A stretch of DNA of 64,000 nucleotides from an uncultured Actinomycetota bacterium. Lineage in GTDB: Bacteria > Actinomycetota > Actinomycetes > Mycobacteriales > Mycobacteriaceae. Positions within the stretch are counted from its first letter, which is position 1. Each line of letters opens with the position of its first letter. The DNA lies in NCBI GenBank assembly GCA_963724165.1, contig CAVRTL010000006.1, positions 200,466-264,465 on the forward strand, given 5' to 3'. Position numbers and translations under genes: made by a program. This document shows, in pieces, positions 2,806 to 64,000 of the stretch. Under the pieces are notes generated by a model. That model was not told where the DNA came from. It searched no databases and saw only the letters and a program-made list of their open reading frames with translations.

Positions 2806-3363
2806 TCAAGGGATGGTGAGCACCTGCCCGGGGTGGATCAGGTCGGGGTTGGGGATGCCGTTGGCCTCGGCGATCGCCTGGTCCTTGCTGCCGTCGCCGT
2901 AGAAGCGGTCGGCGATGGCCGCCAGGGTGTCACCGTGGATGACCGTGTACGTGCGTTCGGCCGTCCCCGCGGAGTCCGGCTCGGAGCCGGTGGCGTTCGT
3001 CACATCGCCGGCCTCCGGCGGCGGGGAACCGGCGGCCTGCGTGTGGCTGGCCCACACCGGCCCGTCGTCGGCGTAGAGCACCAGGTTGCCGTCGTCCTGC
3101 AGCACGAGCCTGGGGTTGCCGCCGCCCGTGGCGTCGGCCTGCCAGACCGGTTCGTCGGGCGTGTACAGAACGAAGTCGCCGTCGCGCTGCACTTCGGCGC
3201 GCACCACGTCGCGGCCGGCGGTCGCCGTGGTCCACAGCGCCCGCCCGCGCCCCGCCAGCACCAGGTTGCCGTCGTCCTGCAACGTCAGGGTGTAGGCCCC
3301 GTTGTCGGAGGTGAGCGAGTCGCCCCGCTCGAGTCGCTGCCCTTCAAAAAGCGTGTCTGACAT
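2806..3363 (-). CDS. Bulb-type (B-) lectin domain plus C-terminal LysM protein
   Basis: Start reassigned to MSDTL (ATG 3363, GAGAGG SD). Two QDDGNLV(L/Y) motifs plus QRDGDFVLY. C-terminal YTVIHGDTLAAIA...NGIPNPDLIHPGQVLTIP is LysM. Confidence 0.9.
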   Translation of the reverse strand: MSDTLFEGQRLERGDSLTSDNGAYTLTLQDDGNLVLAGRGRALWTTATAGRDVVRAEVQRDGDFVLYTPDEPVWQADATGGGNPRLVLQDDGNLVLYADDGPVWASHTQAAGSPPPEAGDVTNATGSEPDSAGTAERTYTVIHGDTLAAIADRFYGDGSKDQAIAEANGIPNPDLIHPGQVLTIP

Positions 3364-3488
3364 GGCTTTACCTCTCGTCGCCCGCGCGTTGTCGCCTCGT
3401 CGTGGCCCGACGGAGTAGGCGTACCTCCCCCGGCGCGATTGAAACTGGGGGAAGCGTGCAGAGGTGAAAGCCGTTGCGGCGAAATGCT

Positions 3489-4742
3489 CTACAGGCGATC
3501 GGTGCGCAGCGACACGCCGGCGGCCGGGAACCGCGCCAGCAGCGCCTCCCCCATCGCCGCCGCGGGTGTCAGGACGCCGCGCAGCTCGGAAAGCTTGTCG
3601 CGGTCGGTGGCCAGGGCCAGGCCGCACTCCCCCAGCAGCACCGACGTCGCCTTGTAGCCGGGATCGCCCCGCTGTTCCATGCGCGCCACGTAGCGGGCAC
3701 CGGTGCTCGTGGTGGTGTAGGTCTCGATGCGGTAGAAACCCCGCTCGCGCGCGGCCGCGCTGGGGCCGGTGCCGGGCTTGGGCACGATGCGCTCCAGCAG
3801 CCGGCGCGGCAGCAGCCGGAAGTAGCGGCTGCCCAGACCGAACGTGGCGCCGGCGATCCCGGTGACGGCGGCGGACGCCAGGGGGGCGACCGGCGACGAC
3901 CCCACGCTCATGGTCTCGCTGTAGCGGAACCGGTGGCCGTAGGCCCAGTCCAGCAGCGCGTTGCTGCGGCGCACGATCCGCGTGTTGTAGGGCGCCATGA
4001 CGAACCCGGCCGTCCACAGCCCGCTCAGCTCTGGCGCGATCTGGCGGCCCCGTCGCCAGGGCAGGTCGGGCTGGGGGCCGAGGTCGGGCTCGGCGTGGCG
4101 GTCGGGGCTCAGCGTGTAGGGGTCGGCGAGCTGGCGACGCGCGTCGGGGTCGTGGGAGGCGGTGTTGAGGACTTCCATCATCGACGCGATGGTGCCGCCG
4201 GAGAAACCCCCGGAGAAGGACTTCACCACCAGGTCGGTGTCGGTGAGCTCACCGGCGTCCGCCTCTTCGGCCGCGCGGTGGAGCGCATACACGCTCAGGT
4301 CCGACGGAACGGAATCGAAGCCGCAGGCGTGCACGATGCGGGCGCCGGTGTCGGCGGCCTGCTTGTGGTAGCCGTCGATGCTGTCGCGGACGAACATCGC
4401 CTCACCGGTCAGGTCGGCGTAGTCGGTGCCCGCCGCGGCGCAGGCGGCCACCAGCGGCAGCCCGTAGCGGGTGTAGGGCCCGACAGTGGTGATCACGACC
4501 TGCGTGCGCGCGGCCATCTCGTCGAGCGTCGACGGCGACGAGGCGTCGGCGACCACCACCGGCCAGGATTGCGCGGCCTCGCCAAGGGTGTCGCGAACGG
4601 CGCGCAGGCGTTCGGCCGACCTGCCGGCGAGCGCGATGCGCGCGTGCGCGCCCGCCCGCGCCAGGTATTCGGCGGTCAGCTTCCCCACGAAACCCGTCGC
4701 CCCGTAGACGACGATGTCGAATTCGCGCGGCGTTGCGGTCAC
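3489..4742 (-). CDS. Saccharopine dehydrogenase-like / trans-acting enoyl reductase (Rv2449c-like)
   Basis: GATGFVG Rossmann motif, VGPY..YG, DLTGE and CGFDSVPSD. TAGCGT -10 at 4751-4756 suggests a leaderless transcript. Confidence 0.9.
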   Translation of the reverse strand: MTATPREFDIVVYGATGFVGKLTAEYLARAGAHARIALAGRSAERLRAVRDTLGEAAQSWPVVVADASSPSTLDEMAARTQVVITTVGPYTRYGLPLVAACAAAGTDYADLTGEAMFVRDSIDGYHKQAADTGARIVHACGFDSVPSDLSVYALHRAAEEADAGELTDTDLVVKSFSGGFSGGTIASMMEVLNTASHDPDARRQLADPYTLSPDRHAEPDLGPQPDLPWRRGRQIAPELSGLWTAGFVMAPYNTRIVRRSNALLDWAYGHRFRYSETMSVGSSPVAPLASAAVTGIAGATFGLGSRYFRLLPRRLLERIVPKPGTGPSAAARERGFYRIETYTTTSTGARYVARMEQRGDPGYKATSVLLGECGLALATDRDKLSELRGVLTPAAAMGEALLARFPAAGVSLRTDRL

Positions 4743-57019: not shown

Positions 57020-57676
57020 GTGACGGCGTCCGACCCGCATAGCCAGACCGGCGATCCGGACACCCCAAATCGTCGCAGCCGGTTGAAATCCGACCGGCGC
57101 ATGCAGCTCTTGGCCGCTGCCGAGCGGCTGTTCGCCGAACGCGGCTTCCTGGCGGTACGGCTGGAAGACATCGGCGCTGCGGCCGGTGTCAGCGGTCCCG
57201 CCATCTATCGCCACTTCCCCAACAAGGAGTCGATGCTGGTCGAACTGCTGGTCGGGATCAGTGCCCGCCTGCTGGCCGGGGCCCGCGACGTGACGGCTCG
57301 CAGCGCCGCCGCGGCCGACGCACTGGACGGACTCATCGATTTCCACCTCGACTTCGCCTTCGGTGAGCCCGACCTGATCCGCATTCAGGACCGCGACCTG
57401 GCGCACCTACCTGAGGCTGCCGAAAAGCAGGTCCGCAAGGCGCAGCGCCAGTACGTCGAGGTCTGGGTCGCGGTGCTGCGCGAACTGAACCCCGAGTTGG
57501 TCGAGGCCGATGCCCGGCTGGCGGCCCATGCGGTGTTCGGTCTGCTGAATTCGACGCCGCACAGCATGAAGTCCCCCGACAATTCGCGCGCCAAGCCCGG
57601 ACGCACGTCGAGGTCGCGTGCCGTCATGCGGGCGATGACCGTCGCCGCCCTGCGGGCGGGGAATCAGTGCCCCTGA
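57020..57676 (+). CDS. bkaR: TetR repressor BkaR (Rv2506-like)
   Basis: HTH AAERLFAERGF...EDIGAAAGVSGPAIYRHFPNKE. Divergent from scoA. GGGAGG SD. Confidence 0.9.
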   Translation: MTASDPHSQTGDPDTPNRRSRLKSDRRMQLLAAAERLFAERGFLAVRLEDIGAAAGVSGPAIYRHFPNKESMLVELLVGISARLLAGARDVTARSAAAADALDGLIDFHLDFAFGEPDLIRIQDRDLAHLPEAAEKQVRKAQRQYVEVWVAVLRELNPELVEADARLAAHAVFGLLNSTPHSMKSPDNSRAKPGRTSRSRAVMRAMTVAALRAGNQCP

Positions 57677-60759: not shown

Positions 60760-62310
60760 TCACTTCCGGCGGCGACTGCGGCCGGTGCCGAAGATGTTGC
60801 GGACGATCTCGCGTACGCCGGTGTTGACGGCGCTCTTCACGGTCGGATTGTTCAGCACTTCTTCCCACATCGCGGGGCCTTTCGGCTCAAAGGGAGCGGG
60901 CATCGGCGGAACCGGGCCGTCTGACAGGACCGGCGGGTCGTCGGACTGGGCTCGCGGCGGCTTCGGCCCGGGCTCGGGCTGCGCCGTTTGTTGCATCGTT
61001 CGGCCGTACTTCTCCTGCAACGAACTGTGTTTCGCCGCATCGGCGATCGCCTCGATCCCGATCGAAGCCATCAGTGACCGGGGCGCCCGCATCCGCGTCC
61101 ACGCGACCGGGGTGGGCGCACCCTTCTCCGAGAGCACGGTGACGATGGCCTCGCCGATCCCCAGCGACGTCAGCGCCGACTCCAGGTCGTAGACATCGGT
61201 TTTCGGATACGTGCGGACGGTCCTGCTGAGCGCCTGCTGGTCGTCGGGCGTGAACGCGCGCAGCGCGTGCTGAATTCGCGCGCCCAACTGGGAGAGCACA
61301 TCATTGGGCAGGTCCGTCGGCAGCTGGGTGCAGAAGAACACCCCGACGCCCTTGGAGCGGATCAGCTTGACCGTCTGCTCCACCTGCTCGAGGAACGCCT
61401 TGGAGGCGTCGGCGAAAAGCAGGTGCGCCTCGTCGAAGAAGAAGACGAGTTTGGGCCTGTCCACGTCGCCGACCTCGGGCAGCACGGTGAACAGGTCCGC
61501 CAGCACCCACATCAAGAACGTGGAGAAGATGACCGGGCGCAACGACTGCCCGCCGAACTCCAGCAGCGAGATGACGCCCTGACCGTCCTGGACGCGCAGC
61601 AGATCCTGCGGGTCGAGCTTCGGGTCGCCGAAGAACGTGTCGCCGCCCTCGCCGGCCAGGTTCACCAGCGCGCGCAGGATGACACCCGCCGTCGTCGACG
61701 ACACCCCGCCCAGATCCTTCAGGGCGGCCTTGCCCTCGTCACCGCTCAGATGGCTGATCACGGCGCGCAGGTCGCCCAAAGTGACCAGCGGGCGGTTGTT
61801 CTGGTTGGCCCAATGGAAGATGAGCCCCAGCGTCGACTCCTGGGTCGCGTTGAGCCCCAGCACTTTCGAAAGCAGGACCGGACCGAAGCTGTCGACGGTC
61901 GCGCGCACCGGCACGCCGAGACCCCCGGTGCCCAGCGAAAGGAACTCCACCGGGAACCCCGTCGGCGCCCAGGTGTCGCCGGTGTCCGTGGCCCGCGCGG
62001 CGGTCTTCTCGTTGTCCTCCCCCGGTTGGGACAGACCCGACAGGTCGCCCTTCACGTCGGCCATCAGCACGGACACACCCGCGGCGCTGAGCTGCTCGGC
62101 AATCAGCTGCAGGGTCTTGGTCTTGCCGGTGCCGGTCGCGCCGGCCACCAGCCCGTGCCTGTTGATGGTGGCCAACGGGATGCGGATCTGCGCGGACGGA
62201 TCGACGACGCCGTCGACGACGACCGTGCCCAGTTCGAGCGCTTGACCTTTGACGGCGTAGCCGTCGGCGATTCGCCGCGTGGGCGTCGTTTCGGCCGATT
62301 CGGTGCTCAT
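60760..62310 (-). CDS. DUF853 / HerA-like ATPase (Rv2510c)
   Basis: NRHGLVAGATGTGKTKT, DVKGD, FFDEAH, IRSKGVG and R.QHALRAFTP. Confidence 0.9.
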   Translation of the reverse strand: MSTESAETTPTRRIADGYAVKGQALELGTVVVDGVVDPSAQIRIPLATINRHGLVAGATGTGKTKTLQLIAEQLSAAGVSVLMADVKGDLSGLSQPGEDNEKTAARATDTGDTWAPTGFPVEFLSLGTGGLGVPVRATVDSFGPVLLSKVLGLNATQESTLGLIFHWANQNNRPLVTLGDLRAVISHLSGDEGKAALKDLGGVSSTTAGVILRALVNLAGEGGDTFFGDPKLDPQDLLRVQDGQGVISLLEFGGQSLRPVIFSTFLMWVLADLFTVLPEVGDVDRPKLVFFFDEAHLLFADASKAFLEQVEQTVKLIRSKGVGVFFCTQLPTDLPNDVLSQLGARIQHALRAFTPDDQQALSRTVRTYPKTDVYDLESALTSLGIGEAIVTVLSEKGAPTPVAWTRMRAPRSLMASIGIEAIADAAKHSSLQEKYGRTMQQTAQPEPGPKPPRAQSDDPPVLSDGPVPPMPAPFEPKGPAMWEEVLNNPTVKSAVNTGVREIVRNIFGTGRSRRRK

Positions 62311-62409
62311 GGCGCTGCGCCCCTCTCCCCGAGTGGTCAGGCAAAGCCTCACACTACTTGCCCGGGCGGCGACGGGCGCAGTCCTCGCGTGGGCCTAGGG
62401 TGAGACGCT

Positions 62410-63057
62410 GTGGTTGACGAATTGGTGTGGATCGACTGCGAGATGACGGGCCTGGACCTGGGCTCGGACAAGTTGATCGAAATCGCGGCGCTGGTCACAG
62501 ACGCCGACCTGAACATCCTCGGCGACGGTGTCGACGTGGTGATCCACGCCGACGACGCCGCCCTGTCGTCGATGATCGACGTGGTCGCCGACATGCATTC
62601 GCGGTCGGGGCTGACCGACGAGGTCAAGGCGTCCACCGTCGACCTGGCGACCGCCGAGGCCATGGTGATGGATTACATCGGCAGCCAAGTCAAGCAACCC
62701 AAAACCGCGCCGCTGGCGGGCAACTCCATCGCCACCGATCGGTCGTTCATCGCCCGCGACATGCCCGTGCTGGACGCGTTCCTGCACTACCGGATGATCG
62801 ACGTCAGTTCCATCAAGGAGCTCTGCCGGCGCTGGTACCCGCGCATCTACTTCGGCCAGCCGGCCAAGGGCCTGGCCCACCGGGCGCTGGCCGACATCCA
62901 CGAATCCATCCGCGAACTGCAGTACTACCGCCGGACCGCATTTGTTGCCCCGCCGGGGCCCTCTACCAGCGAAATCGAGACGGTGGCCGCGCATCTCATG
63001 GGCAACCACGATGCACCCGAACCCAGCGATTCGGCCCCCGAGCCGCCGAGCCGCTAG
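62410..63057 (+). CDS. orn: Oligoribonuclease
   Basis: [10 protein letters not shown] (DEDDh), GNSI..DR.F, HYR.IDVSS and HRALADI.ESI.EL. Confidence 0.97.
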
Positions 63058-63107
63058 TATCGACAGTCGCCGCTCGTTGGCCCGGATCCGGGCCGGCCCG
63101 CGGCCAC

Positions 63108-63181
63108 GGTGAGTGTAGTTCAGTTGGTAGAGCACCAGGTTGTGATCCTGGGGGTCGCGGGTTCGAGTCCCGTCACTCACC
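63108..63181 (+). tRNA. tRNA-His (GTG), with genomically encoded G-1
   Basis: G-GTGAGTG...CCAGG-TT GTG AT-CCTGG...GGTTCGAGTCC...CACTCAC-C. Confidence 0.97.
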
Positions 63182-63359
63182 CCGACGAGAAACGCCGCCG
63201 CGCCCGGACATACGCGGGTGGGGCGGTGTTGGTTGTCCGGTCTCACCCAACGAGCCAGGCAAGCGCGTTCAGAACATCCAGCCCTGCGCTTCGACGTGGC
63301 TTATGAGGTCGGGGCACGACACGGCGCAGTCATTTCAGGCTTGCTCACCATCCATCGGA

Positions 63360-63518
63360 CTAAGCCTGGACTTCGAGCACACCAACGCGCCACAGCGCCG
63401 CGTACACATGGTTCAGCACAATGCCGAACAAGCGAACGGCGCCGTCCAGCAGCATGTCGTTTCCGGCGAAATGCTGCTTGTCAGCGCGGCGCGTTACTCT
63501 CTCGAGCGGCAACACCAT
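63360..63518 (-). CDS. Rv1535-family small protein (52 aa, not in ORF track)
   Basis: MVLPLERVTRRADKQHFAGNDMLLDGAVRLFGIVLNHVYAALWRVGVLEVQA*, preceded by AGAGGAGA SD. The C-terminus mirrors the recalled Rv1535 end (DPLVDGAARLLSIPLRHLYAALWRVGLLEVQA). Confidence 0.85.
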   Translation of the reverse strand: MVLPLERVTRRADKQHFAGNDMLLDGAVRLFGIVLNHVYAALWRVGVLEVQA

Positions 63519-63528
63519 TCTCCTCTAA

Positions 63529-63547
63529 TTAGGCGAGCCTAAGTTAA
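63529..63547. promoter_or_regulatory. IdeR/DtxR-like iron box
   Basis: TTAGGCGAGCCTAAGTTAA matches TTAGGTTAGGCTAACCTAA at 14 of 19 positions. It overlaps a minus-strand TAACTT/TAAGTT -10. Confidence 0.68.
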
Positions 63548-63651
63548 CTTACCCGGCGGAGTGCCGCAAGGGTTCCGACGAAAATTCAGCAGGAACCGTC
63601 GTGACTAGCCCGCAACAGCGGACGAAGATGCCTTTGACCTGCGGCCGTCTG

Positions 63652-63700
63652 TTGACACGGCGGCCGGGGCCTCCTAGTTTGTGACTGACCGTTCAGTCAC
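63652..63700 (+). promoter_or_regulatory. SigA promoter with a perfect palindromic operator at the TSS
   Basis: TTGACA (63652-57), 17 nt, TAGTTT (63675-80), then GTGACTGA-ccgt-TCAGTCAC (63681-63700). Confidence 0.75.
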
Positions 63701-63775
63701 CGGCCGGATGTGCCTACGCGCGCCCCGCCAGTTGTCGCTACACAAGCTTTTGAGCAAACCCTCGAGGAGGTCGGT

Positions 63776-64000
63776 GTGATCGAGAAGATGGCACGCAGCC
63801 ACGACAGTGTTCTCGGCTTCCGGGTCAGCGGAGACGTCACCCGTCAGGATTATGAAATTCTTGAACCCCCAGTTCAGGAAACCATCAAGGCGTCAGGATC
63901 GGTACGGCTGCTACTGGACATGACCGACTTTCGGTGGGAGAAGGTCGAGGCCTGGGGGGCGGACTTCCGCTTCGGCAGGGAATATCACAACTCGATCGAA
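63776..64000 (+). CDS. SpoIIAA-like (STAS/SEC14) protein, partial at window end
   Basis: MIEKMARSHDSVLGFRVSGDVTRQDYE...VRLLLDMTDFRWEKVEAWGADFRFGREY after a GAGGAGG SD. Not in the ORF track. Confidence 0.8.
   Translation, partial: MIEKMARSHDSVLGFRVSGDVTRQDYEILEPPVQETIKASGSVRLLLDMTDFRWEKVEAWGADFRFGREYHNSIE

Follow-up and report, generated by a model that had tools for sequence, protein, structure and literature searches.

A short Rv1535-family gene preceded by a putative IdeR iron box in uncultured environmental mycobacteria

We describe a small gene of the Rv1535 family which, as judged from its sequence, is rather likely to be an IdeR-repressed, iron-starvation-induced, stand-alone paralog of Rv1535. 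It lies in the 64,000-nucleotide stretch of DNA analyzed here (hereafter, the window). In Mycobacterium tuberculosis, Rv1535 is a monocistronic gene of unknown function that is induced by low Mg2+ and is one of two M-box loci (PMC12810186). The features on which we build our reading can be seen directly in the DNA: membership of the family, the absence of an M-box, the match and the position of the operator sequence, a comparative footprint over 12 copies, and coexistence with M-box paralogs. From intermediates found in relatives, we infer an evolutionary route to the present form. The Rv1535 small-protein family is already known; it is the regulatory variant that is new, and the papers found to mention Rv1535 contained no link to IdeR.

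The small protein and its family

The small ORF occupies 63360..63518 on the minus strand (including the TAG stop codon at 63362..63360) and encodes a protein of 52 aa, MVLPLERVTRRADKQHFAGNDMLLDGAVRLFGIVLNHVYAALWRVGVLEVQA. It was identified from the ORF listing and an NCBIfam match, and the uncalled 52-aa ORF that the initial annotation had proposed at 63518..63360 is real. A longer ORF is impossible, because an in-frame TAG lies 9 nt 5' of the ATG. On the same strand, a Shine-Dalgarno-like sequence, AGAGGAGA, is found at 63519..63526, 1 nt from the ATG and 4 nt from a GTG. Its GGAG stops just 1 nt short of the ATG (63518), and the GTG (63515..63513), which is the next codon and an alternative start, is better spaced from it. 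The strong Shine-Dalgarno sequence claimed previously is therefore present as a motif, but it abuts the ATG and its spacing is poor. In the related locus L008, the ATG has become AGG, so that GTG is the sole remaining start, and L168 represents the opposite case, in which the ATG is kept and the GTG is gone. A start at codon 1 or codon 2 is retained in all 12 distinct copies that carry the upstream box described below (iron-box copies), and GGAG or GAGG is retained in 11 of these 12, the copy in L003 having AGAG.

The protein scored 46.9 bits against the NCBIfam model of the Rv1535 domain (NF040653; cut-off 33), with residues 21-52 aligned to profile positions 1-32, and the assignment to the Rv1535 family in the initial annotation thus passed the domain HMM. 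This domain (63363..63458, minus strand) is predicted to form one amphipathic alpha-helix. The score against the full-length equivalog NF040652, 'Mbox_reg_Rv1535', was 59.9 bits, which is below the cut-off of 62; the small protein covers profile positions 31-77 of 77, namely the C-terminal two thirds. All six residues that are invariant in a 35-sequence alignment of the family (Y39, A40, L42, W43, R44 and G46; YAxLWRxG) are present in the window protein, for which a Pfam search gave no match. In other words, the window gene resembles Rv1535 and the two NCBIfam models in its C-terminal domain (DPLxDGAxRLxSIxLRHVYAALWRVGVLEV), in its small size class and in its restriction to mycobacteria. In contrast to Rv1535, it lacks the M-box, the uORF1/uORF2 leader and the family segment MTAxLYDEVVT, beginning instead with MVLPLERV; it encodes 52 aa and is thereby short of the usual ~80 aa, it falls just under the equivalog cut-off, and it has its own promoter with a predicted IdeR site.

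For the 52-aa and 80-aa forms alike, AlphaFold predicted a single C-terminal helix, with pLDDT values of 78-91 within it, and an N-terminus of low confidence. The hydrophobic moment of the helix, 0.48-0.58, indicates that it is amphipathic. A transmembrane helix was considered and rejected, given that the best 19-residue Kyte-Doolittle mean (1.2-1.5) was lower than the usual 1.6 and an amphipathic helix fits better. An excisionase-type helix-turn-helix, suggested by eye from the pattern AAxLLxVxxxxVYxLxxxGxL, was also rejected, since it had no Pfam or PDB support and AlphaFold gave a lone helix; a Pfam search of 35 family members at E <= 10 returned nothing relevant, and a profile search of the PDB with the family returned no match. 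We saw no relationship of the MVLPL leader to the M-box leader or to uORF2, and the protein database held no donor gene for it.

An HMM search of 1.84 billion representative proteins found 32 Rv1535-family clusters in total. Of these, 31 are small proteins of 20-107 aa, and the remaining one, of 1001 aa, is a weak match (E = 1.4e-5). A word-indexed search gave 708 clusters at 90% identity, the source names of which are 'Rv1535 family protein' and Mycobacterium species. In the last 32 codons of 84 distinct family sequences, variability at the three codon positions was 0.10, 0.05 and 0.23, and dN/dS among the M-box-type copies was ~0.23. Given this peak of variability at the third position and the low dN/dS of the M-box copies, we conclude that the family is protein-coding.

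Upstream types among the relatives

We fetched 172 loci, consisting of 80 from species-representative genomes, 80 from metagenomes and 12 from exact-protein look-ups, and classified 167 copies (166 loci and the window) by means of an M-box profile built from Rfam-confirmed examples. This classification gave 141 M-box copies, 13 iron-box copies and two copies with neither, together with 11 that had too little upstream DNA; after five further iron-box loci had been fetched, the iron-box type comprised 18 loci and the window, spread over about eight genomic contexts. The type is rare, being found at two of the 80 genome loci and four of the 80 metagenome loci, and all of its known examples come from uncultured environmental mycobacteria. 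The window organism is itself uncultured, and its sequence has been seen in soil and salt-marsh metagenomes and in no RNA run. Both of the genome examples are metagenome-assembled genomes (MAGs) in which a separate contig carries an M-box copy (L007 is paired with L020, and L008 with L049). Because the two types occur within one MAG, they are paralogs and not alternative alleles, and the earlier description of the window gene as a shortened paralog agrees with the arrangement in these two MAGs.

Rfam searches detected no M-box in 62000..64000 at an E limit of 10, and none in the whole window at the gathering score, in agreement with the initial annotation, which saw no M-box-like leader. The M-box was also absent from the seven iron-box loci scanned, and RF00380 scored 140-152 bits in nine of the 10 other (non-iron-box) loci scanned. 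In the M-box-type leader of L020 (2703-2783), we observed a 26-aa uORF, MSSSDSPDRSPNYVASLSVLRHDVLG, with Pro at position 7, which fits the description of the conserved uORF2 (Rv1535A/Rv1805A) in PMC12810186. No counterpart of this uORF2-like peptide was found in the iron-box copies.

A third upstream type was observed in L081 (2480-2935; M. parascrofulaceum) and L162 (1590-2160). It is AT-rich and ~400 nt long, and the two loci have in common the block TTTTCACYTGATGT..GACGTTTTCG..CGTCAT. These third-type loci showed no M-box, no iron box and no Zur box above background, and no Rfam match at E <= 1. We also considered a Zur box (SNTRWYGAWAAYMRTKKYCRWYADNV) in the window itself, and rejected it because the best match in 63300..63800, 19/26, equals the background mode; the third-type loci were likewise at background. 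The initial annotation had proposed a family of paralogs dedicated to different metals. Two regulatory types were identified, and the wider claim exceeds the evidence; no Zur box rose above background.

The iron box and the promoter

A scan with the IdeR consensus TTAGGTTAGGCTAACCTAA identified a 19-bp iron-box match, TTAACTTAGGCTCGCCTAA, at 63529..63547 on the minus strand, exactly 10 nt from the ATG. It matches the consensus at 15/19 positions on the gene strand and at 14/19 on the plus strand, so that the box described previously, 14/19 and 10 nt upstream, is borne out, with its score being that of the plus strand. The boxes of the relatives score 15-16/19, and that of the window is the weakest variant. 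Positions 6-19 of the box (63529..63542) are an exact match to TTAGGNNNNCCTAA, the perfectly palindromic 14-bp consensus for one IdeR dimer, and this is the single match in the window, even with one mismatch allowed. Among the 172 loci, TTAGGNNNNCCTAA occurs in all 18 iron-box loci, at the same place in each, and in none of the 154 others, and it is absent elsewhere in the 780 kb of fetched DNA. The conservation of the box upstream of orthologs was checked as well, and it was found upstream of every relative of the iron-box subtype. The runner-up iron-box-like match in the window, TCAGGTCGGGCTCACCGAA at 57359..57377, scores 14/19 and lies within overlapping long ORFs; it is probably due to chance.

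The IdeR consensus consists of four CCTAA repeats, and one IdeR dimer has been reported to bind, with a KD of 78 nM, to a half site in which two repeats are intact; the 14-bp consensus was proposed in the same study (PMC8464063). This half-site binding work used the IdeR of Saccharopolyspora and not a mycobacterial one (PMC8464063). The published minimum for a repeat is a cytosine at repeat position 1 or 2 (PMC8464063). The outer repeat of the window box (positions 1-5; reverse complement GTTAA) has no C at either of these positions. Given that it fails the published minimum, one IdeR dimer is expected rather than two, and the window box is probably bound by one dimer. A similar case is the half site C23S1 in the nuo promoter of Saccharopolyspora erythraea, which binds one IdeR dimer with a KD near 100 nM (PMC8464063). 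C23S1 shares with the window box the TTAGGNNNNCCTAA core and a degenerate second dimer site; it differs in genus and in target gene, and the physiological role of the half site was left open by the authors (PMC8464063).

A single iron box over a promoter or transcription start site (TSS) has been associated with repression (PMC9132128), and a putative site with a score of 13/19 was reported to match the consensus about as well as the known IdeR site of fxbA (PMC2170428). The window gene is similar to the IdeR-repressed mbt genes, fxbA and irtA in having a single box over the predicted promoter/TSS region and a match at least as good as that of a known site. Unlike them, it has no evident role in iron uptake, the half sites of one dimer only are intact, and its operator is a predicted one.

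A candidate promoter can be read from the sequence. The predicted -10 hexamer, TAACTT (63541..63546, minus strand), fits TANNNT and is overlapped by the box, in agreement with the earlier observation of a box overlapping a TANNNT -10 element (63546..63541). A second TANNNT candidate, TAGGCT (63541..63536), lies within the iron box, and TANNNT is kept in all of the iron-box copies. The predicted -35 hexamer, TTGCGG (63564..63569, minus strand), is located 17 nt upstream of the -10 hexamer, within a sequence, CCCTTGCGG, that is invariant in 12 copies. A generic sigma-70 scan with a stricter rule reported no promoter. Across the 12 distinct copies, CCCTTGCGG, AGTTA, TTAGGCT and CCTAAT are invariant, and variation falls on much of the 17-nt spacer and on the nucleotides from the box to the Shine-Dalgarno sequence. 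Within the box itself, only positions 4, 5, 13 and 14 vary, and these are the four consensus mismatches (hypergeometric P = 2.6e-4, eight copies); the same four positions vary in the 12-copy alignment, and all of them are outside the specified bases of the 14-bp core. This footprint fits a putative promoter consisting of TTGCGG, a 17-nt spacer and TAACTT, with an operator over the -10/TSS region. Given that the iron-box copies are 80-95% alike at the DNA level, part of this conservation reflects recent common descent.

We also considered the possibility that the box serves the divergent gene, the 5' part of which lies at 63778..64000 on the plus strand and which encodes a SpoIIAA-like protein (PF11964). 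This was rejected because the box follows the small gene into contexts without that neighbor. SpoIIAA-like genes are nevertheless found beside the iron-box gene in L004 (2393-2743), L001 (2241-2612), L007 and L167 (3130-3480) as well as in the window, in three arrangements. Two of the SpoIIAA-like proteins are 28% identical, and a third, 77% identical to the window type, is encoded at another locus in convergent orientation. No SpoIIAA-like gene was found within ~3 kb of roughly 150 M-box-type copies. The recurrence of this neighbor could reflect a functional link or co-mobilization. About 90 nt upstream of the SpoIIAA-like gene, the window contains a perfect palindrome, GTGACTGA-CCGT-TCAGTCAC (63671..63690), which is also present in L004. 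Because the SpoIIAA-like gene of L004 is followed by TetR and FAD-monooxygenase genes, this palindrome may be a TetR operator. In L008, a SAM-IV riboswitch (65.7 bits; 4239-4350) was observed ~1 kb downstream of the iron-box copy.

Origin of the cassette, alternative explanations and meaning

Across contexts, homology extends from GGAACCC(C)TTGCGG to ~20 nt past the stop codon. At the right edge of this cassette, the 17 nt past the stop, TCCGATGGATGGTGAGC (63343..63359, minus strand; from the alignment of the copies), are common to all iron-box copies and have a looser likeness in M-box-type genes. At the left edge, GGAACCC (63570..63576, minus strand) is probably all that is left of a tyrosine-integrase 3' remnant, as seen from the opposite strand of the relatives. 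In several of these, a putative remnant of a tyrosine-recombinase C-terminus (55-65 aa; ..GVPLRLGRFMGHARVTTTLAIYTHLFDDDH..NVVPL.. and a stop) is encoded directly upstream of the box on the strand opposite to the small gene (L003 2700-2830, L008 2777-2890, L087, L168 and L169); the window retains 7 nt only. The remnant matched PHROG integrase families with E = 2.6e-4 to 4e-3, and tblastn with it found only integrase or site-specific recombinase genes and one unannotated record. Pfam and PDB searches with this short remnant gave nothing meaningful. A tRNA-His gene (63109..63183, plus strand), convergent with the small gene, is a possible former integration site, and tRNA genes or fragments adjoin four of the contexts, namely the window, L001, L007 and L172. 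On the basis of the integrase remnant and the adjoining tRNA genes and fragments, the cassette resembles a leftover of an integrative element that has decayed, and it is present in about eight neighborhoods. Since the remnant abuts the box, the promoter swap is likely to have taken place on such an element.

The intermediates suggest how this could have proceeded. L003 has the same promoter and box, followed by a 28-codon ORF (MVLPLSCPAPTTVERVERRLLGGIPGAS) and then by the end of an M-box-type leader, the last ~69 nt of which, with their own Shine-Dalgarno sequence, precede an ORF beginning MTAVL. A 76-aa form is found in L001, L007, L008 and L087, and the 52-aa form in the window and four independent metagenome assemblies (L004-L006 and L095). 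The route would thus begin with a promoter swap that took place beside the integrase remnant and left the translation start of the M-box type unchanged, as in L003. The loss of ~170 nt from the L003 arrangement would then have produced the 76-aa form, and a further in-frame deletion of 72 nt the 52-aa form of the window. Other features of these loci were also observed. In L003, a serine recombinase (resolvase) gene (3249-3746) begins 9 nt past the small gene and is followed by transposase fragments. L172 (2391-2950) has a frameshift in its leader ORF; here a gene encoding a zf-CDGSH (iron-sulfur) domain protein begins 8 nt past the stop of the small ORF, and a tRNA 3' fragment is located just upstream of the cassette.

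We propose that the M-box leader was replaced by a sigma-A-type promoter with a putative IdeR operator over its -10/TSS region. When iron is sufficient, Fe2+-IdeR would occupy the perfect TTAGG-N4-CCTAA pair of half sites and block RNA polymerase. When iron is scarce, IdeR would leave the DNA and a short mRNA with a 5' UTR estimated at ~20 nt would be made. Translation from the ATG or the GTG would give a peptide of ~51-52 aa with a basic N-terminus and a C-terminal amphipathic helix, and this helix, the Rv1535 domain, presumably works through binding a partner.

The main rival to this proposal, which we regard as unlikely, sees the gene as a decaying passenger on an old, degenerating integrative element, with an ORF that no longer works and a box that is a fossil preserved by recent divergence. 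The integrase 3' remnant that abuts the box in relatives, the two successive deletions and the frameshift in L172 are in keeping with decay. So is the pattern of substitution: pairwise dN/dS inside the iron-box clade ranges from about 0.4 to above 1 on very few substitutions and is near 0.7 for the clade, where the protein seems to be under relaxed selection. Among the iron-box copies, that of the window is the most derived (dN of 0.31 relative to M-box copies) and has lost conserved residues, including the near-invariant Pro of the DP motif. However, 11 of the 12 distinct copies, found over about eight contexts, have an unbroken ORF, and the six invariant residues are all retained. Each rearrangement ends just outside the -35 hexamer and just past the stop codon, and substitutions strike the spacer and the UTR but spare the -35 and -10 hexamers and the half sites, with the P value given above for the box. 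These observations argue against a fossil.

The other alternatives, in which a different regulator or an RNA is at work, are less likely than decay. It is improbable that the palindrome is the operator of another protein, be it a different DtxR-family regulator such as MntR, which senses Mn2+, or a protein of the element that acts in repression or recombination; the signal would then not be iron. The site does lie at the junction with the integrase remnant, the IdeR consensus is perfect for one dimer only, and one class of M-boxes in mycobacteria is associated with manganese transporters (PMC12810186). Against this, the match is specific to the IdeR consensus (15-16/19, with the perfect published 14-bp core), and the 780 kb contain no such match elsewhere. 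Slightly less probable still is that the product that matters is an iron-regulated, MrsI-like regulatory sRNA and that the ORF is incidental. The weak protein constraint within the iron-box clade and the poor spacing between the Shine-Dalgarno sequence and the ATG would agree with an RNA, as would a hairpin within the ORF, an imperfect 21-nt inverted repeat at 63439..63487 (81% complementary, 7-nt loop). However, the parent family is clearly protein-coding, and the frame and the start codon survived two deletions, the second of them in frame. In addition, no terminator was found by scanning the 3' region of the small gene, this region folds like shuffled sequence (z = 0.17), and there was no Rfam match. 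Finally, a chance resemblance to the iron box is very improbable: a 10-base degenerate core would by estimate occur about once per 5-Mb GC-rich genome, but first-order Markov sequences with the dinucleotide transitions of the window would contain 0.005 matches of at least 15/19 per window, all such matches in 760 kb of real mycobacterial DNA fall within the iron-box cassette, and the position over the -10 hexamer is conserved in the 18 iron-box loci and the window.

If the small gene is indeed repressed by IdeR, it has parallels elsewhere. The diphtheria toxin gene tox is carried by corynephage beta and repressed by the DtxR of the host. The window gene is predicted to be similar in being an element-borne gene under a host iron repressor of the DtxR/IdeR type; in contrast to tox, its element is merely a remnant, and its cargo is a small peptide of a housekeeping family and not a toxin. 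Mycobacteria also have an iron-induced small RNA, MrsI. The PRI peptide, which is encoded antisense to ideR, binds IdeR itself (bioRxiv 10.64898/2026.07.13.738276). As predicted for the window gene, both are small products switched on by low iron; unlike in PRI, nothing suggests that the window peptide binds IdeR, and it has no sequence relationship to PRI or MrsI.

A paralog that keeps the effector domain while an iron-repressor operator takes the place of the Mg2+ riboswitch would narrow the function of Rv1535 to something of use under both shortages. We raise, as a tentative and rather doubtful extension, the idea that the Rv1535 domain is a general metal-starvation effector, controlled by the M-box for Mg2+ and by IdeR for Fe2+, with the iron version having been spread on integrative elements. 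If this is true, then Rv1535 would do something useful under both conditions (it might, for instance, adjust a divalent-cation transporter common to both or spare machinery that depends on metals), and the recurrent SpoIIAA-like neighbor might be the partner of the domain. The variant is rare, occurs only in uncultured environmental mycobacteria and is perhaps under relaxed selection. It nevertheless makes a simple system for tests, with one peptide under two inputs. It would also provide a natural 14-bp one-dimer IdeR site, so far shown only in Saccharopolyspora, and would exemplify the exchange of an RNA sensor for a protein sensor, with the intermediates still visible in metagenomes.
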